From a virus (taxonomy: Duplodnaviria > Caudoviricetes), in the IMG/VR virus record IMGVR_UViG_3300049979_000170, positions 1-64,000 of that record: DNA of 64,000 nucleotides; one strand, 5' to 3'. Position 1 is the first letter of the stretch, and every line of letters begins with the position of its first letter. The translations under genes were made by a program, and so were the position numbers. Under the pieces are notes generated by a model. That model saw only the letters and a program-made list of their open reading frames with translations. It was not told the DNA's origin and did no database searches. Below are positions 86-63,695 of the stretch, piece by piece.

Positions 86-340
86 TCAGGACCAGCACAT
101 GCGCCATTCCAGTGCCGTGTCGTCGTCAAAAATGAGCGCACACAGGAAGTATTCTACGAACCCCCTGACAACGTGCACCTCCGTGTGGATGGGAATCATC
201 CGCTCCCGGAGCCATGCAAGGTATTCCTCCGTGGCGCCCTTATCGATGGTCGCGACGATCCAGACGCCAGGGTGCCGGTCAAGCGTACCCAAGCCTCGAC
301 CCTCGGCATAGTACTCATGCTTGGGCTGCGGATCGCCCAC
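86..340 (-). CDS. FKMRW-motif small protein
   Basis: 84 aa, ends IFDDDTALEWRMCWS. Confidence 0.8.
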   Translation of the reverse strand: MGDPQPKHEYYAEGRGLGTLDRHPGVWIVATIDKGATEEYLAWLRERMIPIHTEVHVVRGFVEYFLCALIFDDDTALEWRMCWS

Positions 341-341
341 G

Positions 342-626
342 TTATTCCTCGGGAAAGTCGAGAGGGCGGAACAGCGGCCGGGTCCAGTCGCGCTCTGCTT
401 CGACCGAGGTGAGCCCCTGATCGATTACGGCCCTCTGAATGTAGCCGAGCCAGCGGCAGAGCTTGCGATCGGGGAGGCCATCGACGCAGCCGTTGATGAA
501 CTCGGTGCTGAACGTGAACAACGGGGTGTTCTCGTCCTCACCGGATTCGATCAACATGAAGTGGTATCGCTGGCCGCATTTCAGAAGAGCTTCGTGGTAG
601 GCGGTCATCTCGGATTTCTGATTCAT
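342..626 (-). CDS. hypothetical phage protein
   Basis: 94-aa ORF abutting the downstream gene, protein-like composition. Confidence 0.7.
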   Translation of the reverse strand: MNQKSEMTAYHEALLKCGQRYHFMLIESGEDENTPLFTFSTEFINGCVDGLPDRKLCRWLGYIQRAVIDQGLTSVEAERDWTRPLFRPLDFPEE

Positions 627-728
627 CCTGTTAACCCTGTTGTGATCGACGGAGATTCATGGATTGACGGATACGATGATTCGATGCATATTGTGATGGT
701 CAGGGCAGCACAGAGCCACGGTGAAACG

Positions 729-893
729 ATGAACGATTTTCTTGTCGAAGTAACGGTGGACGGTAAATCCAATGCTGGTACGCGCCGATACCATCAGGTT
801 GATGCGCAGGAGGTTGCTGAGAAGCTTCTTCTAGCTCTCGAAGAGGCTGGCCTCTACGATGTTTTGGTTCGAGCGGTTCCTGCTCAAGATTGA
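729..893 (+). CDS. small hypothetical protein (MNDFLVEV..., 54 aa)
   Basis: ATG at 729 downstream of a TTGACG-N17-CATATT promoter-like element near 664-692. Confidence 0.5.
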   Translation: MNDFLVEVTVDGKSNAGTRRYHQVDAQEVAEKLLLALEEAGLYDVLVRAVPAQD

Positions 894-899
894 ACATCA

Positions 900-1120
900 A
901 CCCGCATGGAGCGTCGCGATGGTGGGATTTCATAAGACCTATCTCGAATCCGTACACGGGTGAGCCGTGTATAAAGCCGGAAGGCACCACCGATAGAATG
1001 CGATAACAGTGGAGTAGAGCATGAACCATCCGGATAAGACGTACGATTCCGCCGGGCACGGGTGAGCCGTGCTAGGCGGAACAGTAAGATAAGGAAAGGC
1101 TCCCTCAGGGTTGAGCATTC
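900..1120. ncRNA. candidate structured RNA with a duplicated hairpin
   Basis: 15-mer CACGGGTGAGCCGTG at 955-969 and 1057-1071, each a stem with a GTGAG loop; outer stem TTCCGCC/GGCGGAA. Confidence 0.4.
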
Positions 1121-1304
1121 CTTCTACTCGACGACCGTACCCACCGGGCCTAACAACCCCAGACCCTCAACCTCGATGATGGAGACCATCATGATCGCCT
1201 TCCATAAAACAGTCCGAAAGCGGTAACCTACCCGCTGTGATAGATGAATGATCATACCATACCCGTACCAGCGCCTGATCCAAGAAATGGATCGGGTGCT
1301 TTTT

Positions 1305-60815: not shown

Positions 60816-60839
60816 CTTCATATCGGGTATTTGGGACGA

Positions 60840-61079
60840 TCAGGTGTTAGAGGACTGCTGCCCCTGACCCGACTGGTTGCCCTGGTTGCCAGCGCCTTGT
60901 CCGGACTGGTTGCCCGACTGATTCCCTGATTGGTTGCCCTGCTGTCCGGACTGCTGTCCTTCGGTGCCGGTCTGCGTACCGGTCTGACCCGACTGTCCTG
61001 ACTTCTGGCCTGACTGATTCCCCGTCTGGCCCTGCTGATTCTGGTTCTTCTGGTCCATATTGCCTGTAGACTGGCTCAT
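60840..61079 (-). CDS. Q/G/S/N-rich disordered hydrophilin-like protein
   Basis: repeats of GNQS/GQQS; AGGAG RBS. Confidence 0.75.
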   Translation of the reverse strand: MSQSTGNMDQKNQNQQGQTGNQSGQKSGQSGQTGTQTGTEGQQSGQQGNQSGNQSGNQSGQGAGNQGNQSGQGQQSSNT

Positions 61080-61441
61080 GTGAAGGTCTCCTGAATCTAG
61101 TCCAACCAAATCGTTGGACACGGCGCTAAGTTAGACAACACAAGAGATGACGCAAGCCCATCTTTACGTTAAAATTTTGGGAACGAATCGTCGAATACCA
61201 TGATTGCGCCCATACTGGAGATACCCATGACGGCGATGCGAACCCTTGATCTCGCTGATATTACAGCGACGTTCGACCAAATGCTGGATGATCTCGATTG
61301 TCTGAATCTGGACGCGCGGTCACGGCGACACCCACACGCGACCGAAACCCCGCGCAGTTCTCGGGCCGAACCCGAGATGGAAATTGGCGTCGGAACCTCG
61401 CGCGTCCGCCGCCTTCCCACACAGGAAGCCTCACAGGCCCA

Positions 61442-62791
61442 TTAGGAGCGCCACCAGAGCGTTCCATCGACCATGTCCTTCACACGGATGCCATGGCCAG
61501 CCAGAACGTCCCTGAGGGCGTCTGAGCGCGCGTAATCGCCTGTCTTACGGGCCTCTCGGCGCTGATCAAGCAGTTCCTGCTCTTCCTGGCTCGCGGACGG
61601 TCGCTTCTGCGCGAAGCCAAGCCGATCGAGCGCGAACATCATCCCCTGGGCAACAGTGGGATTCTTCGTCGTATTGAGTAGGTTGGTGGCCTCGTGAAGC
61701 TCGGTGATCGCCTGCGGGGTGTTCAGGTCTTTTGCCAACGCCCCGATGATGGTCTGGGAGACCATGTTGTTGACCGGCTCTAGGGACGTGTACGGAAGCA
61801 GCGCGTCACGCCACCGGGCAAGCGCCAGCCGAGCAGATTCCAGCGTCGCGTCGGTGAAGTCGAGCGGTGACCGATAATGGGTCTGGAGCAGGGCCAGACG
61901 AATCTCCGGCCCCGTGAAGCCACGCGCGACCACGTCGGGCACGGTGAAAAAGTTACCGGCGGACTTCGCCATCTTCTCCCGGCCGACCAGCACCATCCCG
62001 TTGTGGACCCAGAAGTTTGCGAGTTTCCGACCCGGCGTGTGGTGGGAGCACGCGTACTGGCTGATCTCGCAATCGTGGTGGGGAAAACGCAGGTCACCAC
62101 CACCCGCATGAACGTCGATGGTCTGGTCCGCGAAAATGCTCTCGATCATCGCGGAGCATTCGATATGCCAGCCCGGCCGACCTCGACCGAACGAGGCGTC
62201 CCAACCGGGCTGATCCGGCGTTGACGGCTTCCATAGGACAAAGTCGGCCTGATTCCGCTTGTAGCTGGCCTCGCTGATCCGGTGCTGACCCGCTTGGAGA
62301 TCGGACTGGATATGGCGGGAAAGCGCGCCATGCTCGGGATATGAGGCGACATCGAACAGCACATGGCCTTCCGACTCGTAGGCATGGCAGTTCAAAAGGA
62401 GTGCTGCGATCTGCCCGATGATGGGTGCGATATTCCCCGTGGCGCGCGGCTCATGATTGGGGCGTAGGCATCCGAGGGAATCCACCACCTCGTGGTACTG
62501 GACGATCACCCGCTCGGTCAGCGCGTGAATGGGCTCGCCGTTCTGGGCGGCCCGGTCCATGATCTTGTCGTCGATGTCGGTGAAGTTTCGCGCGTACTTT
62601 ACCGTGTCTGCCCCGTAGGCGAGCCGGAGCAGCCGGTAGAGCACATCGAAGACCACCGCCGGGCGAGCGTTCCCCAGGTGGGGAACGTCGTACACGGTCG
62701 GCCCGCACGCATACATGGTCACGTAGTTGGGGTCCTGCGGGGTGAACCGCTCCACGCTACGGGACAATGAATTGTACAGGTCGATCATCAC
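61442..62791 (-). CDS. cysS: cysteinyl-tRNA synthetase
   Basis: YACGPTVYD..HLGNAR, NFTDIDDKI, FVLWKPS, GRPGWHIECSAM, GGDLRFPHH, KMAKS, C-terminal anticodon-binding region. Confidence 0.95.
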   Translation of the reverse strand: MMIDLYNSLSRSVERFTPQDPNYVTMYACGPTVYDVPHLGNARPAVVFDVLYRLLRLAYGADTVKYARNFTDIDDKIMDRAAQNGEPIHALTERVIVQYHEVVDSLGCLRPNHEPRATGNIAPIIGQIAALLLNCHAYESEGHVLFDVASYPEHGALSRHIQSDLQAGQHRISEASYKRNQADFVLWKPSTPDQPGWDASFGRGRPGWHIECSAMIESIFADQTIDVHAGGGDLRFPHHDCEISQYACSHHTPGRKLANFWVHNGMVLVGREKMAKSAGNFFTVPDVVARGFTGPEIRLALLQTHYRSPLDFTDATLESARLALARWRDALLPYTSLEPVNNMVSQTIIGALAKDLNTPQAITELHEATNLLNTTKNPTVAQGMMFALDRLGFAQKRPSASQEEQELLDQRREARKTGDYARSDALRDVLAGHGIRVKDMVDGTLWWRS

Positions 62792-62800
62792 GATGCCTTG

Positions 62801-63379
62801 TCAGTTGTCGAAGAAGAACACCAGCCGTGTCTTCTCGGGATTCTCAATGTTCTTGAGAAGCCATTTATGCTGTTGCGGGAACCGTTGCACGCCAGGATTG
62901 GCCAACATCTCGTCAACCATGAGCCAGGAATGGGAATGGCCGTCGTCGCCCATCGTCTCGATCTCCCGCGCCACCTCCGGGCTGGCATCGTCGGGTATCC
63001 CGCGCTGCTCGAACGAGTCCGGGTGATCTGAACGGACGCCCTTCGCGGCCCAGCCGAAGAAGCCGTAGTCCCGGACCCGGAACCGCTCCGTGTATTCCGT
63101 GCCTGGGAGGTTGAAGTCCCACTGCATCAGCGGATCGTGCCCGTACTTGGCCTCGGCCTCCTCGATCGACATCGCCTCGAAGTATGCGCTGACCTTCTTG
63201 TATCGGGCCATGCTGTTGTCCTCGGGCTCGAAGGTGAACGCTAGATCGGCCGCGCCATTGTCGAGCTTCTTCTCGACAATCAACTCGTACCAGTATTCGA
63301 CGTTCGGAGTTGGCTTCCACGTGGGAACCCATTTGCCATCAATAAGCGTTTCGAAATACGTATGTATGTCACAACCCAC
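62801..63379 (-). CDS. hypothetical phage protein (MGCDIH...)
   Basis: GCDIH...RDYGFFG...GVR...RGIPDDAS...HSHSWL...RLVFFFDN; AGGGAG RBS. Confidence 0.8.
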   Translation of the reverse strand: MGCDIHTYFETLIDGKWVPTWKPTPNVEYWYELIVEKKLDNGAADLAFTFEPEDNSMARYKKVSAYFEAMSIEEAEAKYGHDPLMQWDFNLPGTEYTERFRVRDYGFFGWAAKGVRSDHPDSFEQRGIPDDASPEVAREIETMGDDGHSHSWLMVDEMLANPGVQRFPQQHKWLLKNIENPEKTRLVFFFDN

Positions 63380-63443
63380 TTTTATTCCCTCCCTTTGGAG
63401 TGCTCTAAGAAACTGCCGCACGTTTAGTGGCATTAAAGCTCAC

Positions 63444-63695
63444 TTAGAAAAATCTAAGCTTGAATTCAAGCGCCACATTGGGGTCTGAGAACGTATATTC
63501 GTAATGCATATACTCTCCCCAATTGTCGAATCGACTTCCTTTTCCATCGCAAGGGAACGAGTAAGCGGAAAAAAGACCTGGAACATCGTCCGAGGCCGCC
63601 CATTTGAATGGCTCTGAATCGAAGCAAAAATCGACGGAAATCGGGCGAATGACCCGGACCTCGTGTGCCTGACGCAGAACAATGCGTACGGCCAT
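63444..63695 (-). CDS. FKMRW-motif small protein
   Basis: ends YTFSDPNVALEFKLRFF. Confidence 0.85.
   Translation of the reverse strand: MAVRIVLRQAHEVRVIRPISVDFCFDSEPFKWAASDDVPGLFSAYSFPCDGKGSRFDNWGEYMHYEYTFSDPNVALEFKLRFF

Follow-up and report, generated by a model that had tools for sequence, protein, structure and literature searches.

What would a single bacteriophage gain from dozens of diverged copies of one small protein? The question is raised by IMG/VR virus record IMGVR_UViG_3300049979_000170 (Duplodnaviria; Caudoviricetes), of which positions 1 to 64,000, hereafter the window, were analysed; they open a viral contig of 75,026 bp. An initial annotation of the window, made from its letters and translations, had described a large family of short open reading frames (ORFs) that end in variants of a C-terminal FKMRW motif. 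We call them the RW-tail family. The proteins are predicted to share one small alpha/beta fold in which the tail looks like part of the core, and we tentatively read the family as a repertoire of binding proteins.

Census of the RW-tail family

An extended family hidden Markov model (HMM), iterated on all stop-to-stop frames, detected 48 copies in the window. A further 13 lie in the remainder of the contig, at 64001-75026. Unless stated otherwise, the E values listed below come from this extended model. With a core HMM, 48 frames of the window scored E <= 1.8e-7, whereas five shuffles that preserve dinucleotides yielded no match. The core HMM was built from the window copies themselves and is therefore circular, so the census was repeated with an HMM made only of external sequences (134 cluster representatives, each less than 60% identical to this genome). 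This external-only HMM recovered 45 of the 48 copies, missing three divergent ones at 1601-2375, and added one divergent copy on the minus strand at 4766-5146. The total is 49 copies in the window (48 clear and one divergent) and 62 on the contig, and the annotated figure of about 49 copies in 64 kb was thereby borne out. The family genes cover about 22% of the window. Their median product is 88 amino acids (aa) long, and the domain itself spans about 55 residues. A strict regular expression for the tail matched 25 open frames that end one residue past the motif.

The members in the window are as follows (coordinates, strand, product and C-terminal residues, E value).

86-340, minus: 84 aa, tail ...EWRMCWS (E=8e-10)
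1305-1604, minus: 99 aa, FRLRW plus a 17-residue extension (E=5e-16)
1601-1858, minus: 85 aa, divergent tail ...EARTRWT (E=6e-11; missed by the external-only HMM)
1855-2112, minus: 85 aa, ...EWRMRWT (E=1e-10; AlphaFold2 model beta-alpha-beta-beta-alpha)
2109-2375, minus: 88 aa, ...AWRMRWT (E=4e-7)
2372-2614, minus: 80 aa, ...FKTRWWGT (E=3e-13)
2614-2865, minus: 83 aa, YRMRW plus a 9-residue extension (E=5e-21)
2865-3083, minus: 72 aa, ...AFRLRWC, ATG overlapping the stop of the non-family ORF 3083-3385 (E=1e-13)
3382-3777, minus: 131 aa, ...AFKIRWG (E=2e-15)
4766-5146, minus: divergent, start uncertain; strand, W helix and F strand kept; degenerate tail ...AVAKHW plus 13 residues (HMM of external relatives only)
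6294-6581, minus: 95 aa, ...EFKMRWL (E=5e-18)
6581-6850, minus: 89 aa, ...AFRMRWT (E=3e-20)
6847-7065, minus: 72 aa, ...AFKMRWA (E=3e-19)
7065-7361, minus: about 98 aa, start uncertain, ...EFKLRWV (E=8e-15)
7358-7816, minus: 152 aa, ...EFKLRWV (E=7e-17)
14304-14606, plus: 100 aa, ...NVRMRWT (E=2e-9)
14962-15366, plus: start TTG 14962 or ATG 15025, FKMRW plus a 9-residue extension (E=7e-15)
15366-15620, plus: 84 aa, ...EFKMVWG (E=2e-15)
15620-15850, plus: 76 aa, ...EFKMRWG (E=2e-22)
15850-16068, plus: 72 aa, ...EFRMRWC (E=3e-16)
18032-18259, minus: weakened tail ...AFKLAFG (extended HMM E=0.013; among the 48 core-HMM matches at E <= 1.8e-7)
18275-18676, minus: 133 aa, ...EFKMRWG (E=3e-17; near-identical external protein P0094)
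19286-19525, minus: 79 aa, ...EFRMRWS (E=4e-12)
19720-19965, plus: 81 aa, ...TFRIRWG (E=2e-13)
19962-20204, plus: 80 aa, ...QFKVRWG (E=1e-18)
21756-22133, minus: 125 aa, ...MFRMKFS (E=1e-7)
22133-22378, minus: 81 aa, ...EFRLRWC (E=2e-13)
22388-22603, minus: 71 aa, ...AFVLRFG (E=2e-8)
22613-22888, minus: 91 aa, ...AFQMRFG (E=7e-12)
23086-23460, minus: start TTG 23460 or ATG 23379, ...AFLMRFG (E=9e-13)
26654-26953, plus: 99 aa, ...EFKLRWA, first in a run of nine (E=3e-12)
26953-27219, plus: 88 aa, ...EFKLRWA, folded as 26944-27216 (E=6e-20; AlphaFold2 core pLDDT, the predicted local distance difference test score, >90)
27219-27476, plus: 85 aa, ...EFKMRWF (E=1e-15)
27476-27706, plus: 76 aa, ...EFKMRFG (E=3e-19)
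27706-27957, plus: 83 aa, ...EFKIRWV (E=5e-16)
27948-28196, plus: 82 aa, ...AFKLRWM, ATG within the CGA-TGG codons of the preceding gene (E=3e-12)
28196-28462, plus: 88 aa, ...AFKMRWK (E=1e-18)
28462-28788, plus: 108 aa, ...AFKMQWA (E=2e-16)
28788-29240, plus: 150 aa, ...AFKMRWA, last in the run of nine (E=6e-11)
29677-30129, plus: 150 aa, ...ALKMRWF (E=9e-12)
34830-35096, plus: 88 aa, ...AFKMRWL (E=3e-10)
35093-35368, plus: 91 aa, ...MFKMKWL (E=2e-14)
37993-38415, minus: 140 aa, FKMRF plus a 5-residue extension (E=3e-10)
41313-41678, plus: 121 aa, ...LFKLRWF (E=4e-11)
41685-41960, plus: 91 aa, ...AFKMRWF (E=6e-11)
52720-52962, minus: weakened tail ...FFKVAWF (E=2e-9)
56393-56626, minus: 77 aa, ...AFRMRWC (E=3e-13)
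56626-56925, minus: 99 aa, ...EFKMRWC (E=3e-18)
63444-63695, minus: 83 aa, ...EFKLRFF (E=1e-10)

With 62 paralogues on the contig, largely in tandem runs of up to nine within one phage, the family is a lineage-specific multigene expansion. The annotated runs at 1305-3083 (seven genes), 6294-7816 (five), 15025-16068 (four) and 26654-29240 (nine) were found as described, whereas the run at 21756-23379 consists of five family genes and a non-family 56-aa ORF, not of six family genes. A frameshifted copy had also been annotated; none was found, and no motif-bearing fragment lies outside the census. The candidate for it proved to be a non-family 100-aa ORF (3083-3385) followed by the intact 72-aa member at 2865-3083. 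Two non-family ORFs thus sit inside arrays on the minus strand, at 3083-3385 (100 aa) and at 22919-23089 (56 aa), and the former is translationally coupled to the family genes on either side through ATGA and TGATG overlaps.

Domain anatomy and predicted fold

Conservation was read from an alignment of 150 family sequences (60 local and 90 foreign). The first conserved element is a weakly conserved strand, [HY]-x-[VFLI]-x-[LIV], placed ahead of the W helix. This helix 1 reads [ED]-x-x-x-W-C-x-[ED]-x-F-G, and the central W-C-x-E-x-F-G segment of the annotation is real (W 98%, C 60%, acidic residue three after W 68%, F 37%, G 49%). A second strand with an aromatic residue in 99% of sequences is followed by a loop of highly variable length and by a third strand that ends in F (78%). 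The tail, [DN]-[PE]-[DN]-x-A(94%)-F(71%)-x-F(95%)-[KR](98%)-[ML](91%)-R(92%)-[WF](100%), is followed by one residue and the stop. The conserved positions are mostly aromatic or aliphatic, and no invariant polar residue that would suggest catalysis was found in the alignment. The N-termini had been described as sharing no similarity, which holds except for the weak first strand; this strand is part of the fold. The reported variation of synonymous codons was confirmed, as all six Arg codons occur in the tail and both TTC/TTT and AAG/AAA are present.

AlphaFold2 was run on two members with 23% identity to each other, namely 26944-27216 and the divergent 1858-2112, and both models showed the same strand-helix-strand-strand-helix order. 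Core pLDDT was about 83-92 in the model of 1858-2112. Both models are beta-alpha-beta-beta-alpha, which agrees with the earlier proposal of one small alpha/beta scaffold and extends the common fold beyond the last 15 residues. The fold is predicted to be a ferredoxin-like sandwich that lacks the last (fourth) strand.

Helical periodicity places A, F, F, M/L and W of the tail on the faces expected against the sheet and the W helix, with R and the variable position outward. Because its hydrophobic residues are expected to face the sheet and the W helix, the tail motif looks mainly like fold core and not like an exposed docking helix. The annotated idea that the proteins dock on a shared partner through the FKMRW helix was not supported as stated, since the hydrophobic positions of the motif are predicted to pack inward. 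On the same periodicity, the fold would be built by the helix-1 W, the strand-2 aromatic residue, the strand-3 F and A, F, F, M/L and W of the tail helix, and the tail K/R and R would probably pair with acidic residues of helix 1.

Foldseek searches of the PDB with both models gave no match at E <= 0.001. The best structural Z was 5.9, and the neighbours at Z 5-6, a level common among unrelated small alpha/beta domains, included designed ferredoxin folds and ACT, PII-like, RRM and ribosomal domains. Like the ferredoxin-like domains (ACT, RRM, PII-like and PDB 2n2t), the models have two helices on one face of an antiparallel sheet in the order beta-alpha-beta-beta-alpha, and 2n2t, a designed ferredoxin fold, was among the top matches of both (Z 5.2 and 5.8). 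Unlike those domains, they have three strands, not four, and the resemblance is one of common arrangement only. The family profile had no sequence match to any PDB chain. A structure search of BFVD returned only uncharacterised phage proteins, and one of the ESM Atlas only unnamed viral clusters.

Termini, fusions and charge

The domain is C-terminal throughout, and most members have only a short tail beyond it. Of 61 local copies, 54 stop exactly one residue past W. The 150 best foreign clusters gave about 137 such ends: 115 were counted directly, and a further 22 had been binned elsewhere by an offset of the regular expression. Some foreign members carry N-terminal membrane helices or anchors, and one member of the family has a stretch resembling capsid protein Gp23 (PF07068, E=4e-4, under the curated Pfam cut-off). 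Past the end of the window, on the minus strand at contig 72017-73153, a 378-aa protein joins a domain of about 300 aa to an RW-tail domain, a fusion that five or six diverged phages have retained. The 300-aa domain has a CxxCxGxG-like motif near residue 30 and many stand-alone homologues of 220-320 aa in metagenomes, plus one in Nocardia farcinica. Neither this fused domain nor the N-terminal parts of the longest members had a Pfam, PHROG or PDB match.

The isoelectric points (pI) of the members range from 4.7 to 9.8 (10th-90th percentile) with a median of 6.2; 29 members are acidic and 18 basic. This wide range and the lack of a common charge argue against a uniform role in nucleic-acid binding or DNA mimicry.

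Duplication and selection

The best identity between paralogues within the genome was 22-47%, and the closest paralogue was the adjacent gene in 15 of 61 cases, which points to tandem duplication. From these sequence comparisons, the family appears to have expanded by old tandem duplication.

For orthologue comparison, the syntenic relative L094 was used. This contig of 65.7 kb matches positions 62150-74986 of the present one at 68-87% nucleotide identity. Protein identity, nonsynonymous divergence (dN) and its ratio to synonymous divergence (dN/dS) were as follows.

Twelve family genes: 42-80% aa identity, dN 0.13-0.50, dN/dS 0.11-0.31
Clp protease, terminase and four other non-family genes: 90-99%, dN 0.008-0.067, dN/dS 0.02-0.18
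Three other non-family genes of the same region, as fast as the family: 70-83%, dN 0.10-0.22, dN/dS 0.11-0.34

The ratios of 0.11-0.31 were seen in 12 of 12 family pairs; they indicate purifying selection and copies that are individually retained, in keeping with the selection on the protein that had been proposed from the substitutions. Most copies evolve several-fold faster in dN than Clp/terminase-type housekeeping neighbours. The 'hypervariable N-terminal surface' of the annotation was not supported as stated: N-terminal dN/dS was not consistently above that of the core, and part of the N-terminus is strand beta1.

Second uses of the tail codons

Junctions between family genes often read ...(C/A)GG-TGG-xxx-TGA-TG or ...xxA-TGA. 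Of 16 genes whose stop shares bases with the following ATG (TGATG), 15 encode the tail Arg by CGG or AGG, which places GGTGG five bases upstream. The same two codons encoded the tail Arg in 4 of 17 genes without a coupled downstream start (coupled vs. uncoupled, Fisher p = 6e-5) and made up 36% of Arg codons elsewhere in family genes (p = 4e-6 against these). Such junctions lie at 26953, 27219, 27476, 28196, 28462, 28788, 15620, 15850 and 56626, among others. The codon bias indicates that the tail codons have a second use as ribosome-binding site for the gene that follows. As 21 uncoupled genes keep the amino-acid motif too, the motif is not a by-product of that site. Starts at GTG inside the R-W codons, with 10-nt overlaps, were rejected in favour of the ATG that overlaps the stop; the GTG starts in the gene calls of the public relative's record are probably three codons too early.

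One family gene of the contig, at 71539-71805, is absent from L094 (L094:9520-9600). The breakpoints of this indel fall within the 8-nt TGAGGTGG common to two neighbouring tail motifs, a place where entire gene units can thus come and go. Besides encoding the tail, these codons provide a ribosome-binding site for the next gene and microhomology for the gain and loss of gene units. Codons that serve at once as protein core, ribosome-binding site and recombination microhomology illustrate how arrays of this kind may expand and remain expressed. Conversely, L094 has a 163-aa ORF inserted exactly between the stop of a family gene and the next start; by eye, the N-terminus of its product is hydrophobic and resembles a signal peptide.

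Distribution of the family

The initial annotation knew of no functional description of the family, and our searches agreed. None of 60 aligned members scanned singly matched a PHROGs family, the same members had only five unrelated single matches in Pfam (E 0.002-0.04), and ten external relatives gave no relevant family match. Full-text searches for the motif and for related phages returned no description, and a paper on Sinorhizobium phage AP-J-162 lists 304 'unique' ORFs and names no such family (PMC11242549).

A 50-position family profile was searched against 1.84 billion representatives clustered at 50% identity and matched 2,038 clusters. The best 150 of these were all shorter than 185 residues, with the domain C-terminal in nearly all. 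Matches per phage were as follows.

Uncultured phage fragment, 57% complete, 266 kb: 85 profile matches
Complete uncultured phage, 608 kb: 38 profile matches
Fragment, 38 kb: 19 profile matches
Fragment, 54 kb: 14 profile matches
Cultured Sinorhizobium meliloti phage Phosso, 469 kb: about 31 profile matches
Agrobacterium phage Atu_ph07, 490 kb: 3 weak profile matches

In Atu_ph07 the three weak matches fall within 'hypothetical' genes or between them, and nothing there is annotated as a virion protein. The 25 Phosso genes inspected around the matches are annotated 'hypothetical protein' except for one methyltransferase. Like the proteins of the window, those of Phosso (PV764938.1; e.g. XYS97193-97194, XYS97205-97208 and XYS97656-97658) have a W helix (WCxxNxG), form tandem runs with 4-nt overlaps and carry the motif at the C-terminus, where the tails read ...dAMxFKL[RAT][WF]-x. 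Unlike them, they form a subfamily of their own with a weaker Arg, a clearer first strand (H-x-I-x-V-x-W) and a lower copy density. As the family is present in this cultured phage, its function is open to bench work.

A tblastn search with a single member against 50,697 phage records found only itself, BLAST being too insensitive for this family. When the complete family alignment was used for a word-indexed search of 5.8 billion proteins, it produced just 4 matches, and none in the 'longer' mode. A degenerate DNA pattern for A-F-x-F-K-M-R-W hit 63 loci in the genomes of 185,579 bacterial species (596 Gb), against about 70 expected by chance (hand estimate). The only real bacterial case among these loci was Methylobacterium carpenticola ID0610, with five copies (chromosome ~216-222 kb and 281 kb) in a mobile island that also holds a DNA methylase, an IS630-type transposase and a serine resolvase. 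The island gave no clue to function; it is possible that these copies point to the host range of the phage clade.

The domain is thus uncatalogued, and its expansion belongs to a known kind, the multigene expansions of jumbo phages, but is larger and far more diverged. In Bacillus phage G, a zinc-ribbon family of about 35 copies was called an unprecedented expansion (Iyer et al. 2021, PMC7824862), and both phage G and coliphage 121Q have arrays with over 30 similar genes (Hua et al. 2017, PMC5646251). Those arrays likewise consist of many small-protein paralogues in tandem runs, in giant phages, of duplication origin and with no assigned function. The domain is different, however, and the RW-tail expansion exceeds the 35-copy case, with 62 copies in 75 kb here and 85 matches in the 266-kb fragment; its copies are 22-47% identical, not 'very similar', and lie in more than 20 places on both strands.

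One uncharacterised domain accordingly makes up about a fifth to a quarter of a phage fragment, and in related phages of 270-610 kb dozens to about 100 genes encode this same domain, which is absent from Pfam and PHROGs. Much of the 'dark matter' of this clade of giant phages of plant- and soil-associated bacteria reduces to what the RW-tail domain does.

Possible functions

The reading we favour, tentatively and with real doubt, is that the family is a diversified repertoire of small, non-enzymatic binding proteins directed against host or defence targets, with the motif as fold core. Each copy would bind a different host or defence component during infection, using the N-terminal tail, the open face of the sheet and the hairpin of variable length. 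By analogy, large eukaryotic DNA viruses with their multigene host-range families would offer a parallel to such a repertoire. The ankyrin/PRANC proteins of poxviruses and the MGF proteins of African swine fever virus comprise dozens of diverged paralogues of one scaffold and are thought to act in host range or immunity. In the poxvirus case, a conserved C-terminal module is combined with variable N-terminal parts; in contrast to the eukaryotic-virus families, to which they have no sequence or fold relation, RW-tail proteins are mostly a single 55-residue domain.

Several points weigh against this reading. Burial of the tail motif was deduced from periodicity and not read off coordinates. With dN/dS below 1 throughout and no clear excess in the N-terminal parts over the core, there is no arms-race signature at this resolution. 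Finally, the conservation of the tail K/R (98%) and R (92%) and of the end one residue past W (~90%) exceeds what a fold core needs and could mark a shared ligand.

A shared partner is the essence of an adaptor library, in which the C-terminal domain would dock on one hub (the phage Clp or a host machine) while the N-termini bring cargo. Such a library would resemble, by analogy, the poxvirus ankyrin proteins with their C-terminal F-box-like PRANC motif. We consider it unlikely, and it keeps what weight it has because of the strict C-terminal position of the domain, the conserved K/R and R (against 63-68% for the acidic residues of helix 1) and the fusions, that is, those behind the 300-aa domain, the membrane anchors and the Gp23-like stretch. 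A ClpP gene lies next to an array both in this phage and in L094, and six Clp-like ORFs were reported in the related phage AP-J-162 (PMC11242549); however, arrays are found all over the genome, so the adjacency of clpP means little. Most members, moreover, are almost nothing but domain, part of the supposed N-terminal cargo region is strand 1, and the hydrophobic residues of the motif should be buried. The R is poorly kept in the Phosso subfamily (FKLAW, FKLTW, FKVAM), and no partner candidate emerged. Less likely again is the extended version, a universal docking or targeting module that plugs more than 60 different small heads, and now and then a large domain or a membrane anchor, into one hub such as the phage Clp protease or a host machine, with the W-x-COOH end in the recognition signal. 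If true, this module would be the bacterial-virus counterpart of the substrate-adaptor libraries of eukaryotic viruses.

We give little credence to self-association, in which open edge strands would pair and the paralogues form homo- or hetero-oligomers such as scaffolds, decoys or condensate-like assemblies, instead of binding one host target apiece. The missing fourth strand of the sandwich would leave such an edge, natural tandem fusions of two domains exist (P0003, P0010, P0013, P0030 and P0074), and the weak structural neighbours include designed beta-sheet heterodimers and ACT-type domains (Z up to 5.9). ACT domains act as dimers. Those structural matches, however, are at a level usual among unrelated small alpha/beta domains; a homodimer prediction for residues 34-91 of one member scored 0.11 (mark 0.42) and carries no weight either way.

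It is improbable that the proteins are regulators that bind a ligand, RNA or DNA on the sheet face in the manner of ACT, RRM or PII-like domains, with the tail K and R as a common contact. The fold class, with its ACT, PII-like, RRM and ribosomal-protein neighbours, and the conserved basic residues of the tail would fit, but about one member in two is acidic overall, the strands showed no RNP-like motif, and at least 60 regulators of one type in one phage would lack precedent.

Largely dispensable accordion DNA, with arrays that persist through tail-driven unequal recombination and translational coupling, is the least credible reading and already disfavoured: a whole-gene indel bounded by the tail motif, tail codons that serve as ribosome-binding site and copy numbers that vary widely between related phages speak for it, but every tested orthologue pair is under purifying selection, 0 of 62 copies are broken or frameshifted, the paralogues are old yet intact, and the motif is kept in genes that have no coupled downstream gene.

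Source contig and neighbouring genes

The other features identified on the contig were as follows.

47442-50351: phage tail sheath
30253-31629, minus: T4 gp15-like tail protein
61442-62791, minus: full-length cysteinyl-tRNA synthetase
42364-43455, minus: HWE-type histidine kinase
L001:4991-5539 (numbering in which L001:7539-7805 is contig 71539-71805): ClpP protease, 99.5% identical to that of L094

Compared with its counterparts in Phosso and Atu_ph07, the sheath shows 48% identity; the value rises to 61% for the complete 608-kb uncultured phage. Because of the tail sheath, the T4 gp15-like protein and sheath relatives with genomes of 469-608 kb, the contig is assigned, on gene content, as a piece of a jumbo myovirus. 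Leaf and silage metagenomes hold near-identical DNA. The host is probably a plant-associated alphaproteobacterium, as suggested by the HWE kinase, the phage relatives and the habitat.

A scan of 14-31 kb for sigma-70 promoters and terminators found sites no more numerous than in shuffles, and a search of sequencing runs for the DNA listed no RNA dataset. Six tRNA genes form two clusters, one at 10659-11490 (Gly-TCC, Val-GAC and Ile-GAT) and one at 23993-24427 on the minus strand (Ala-TGC, Met-CAT and Gly-GCC). The G+C fraction is 0.50 at 8001-12000 and at 40001-44000 of the window, compared to 0.55-0.58 elsewhere, and the former stretch contains a tRNA cluster and two 279-aa ORFs, one of them with a weak match to fibronectin type III.

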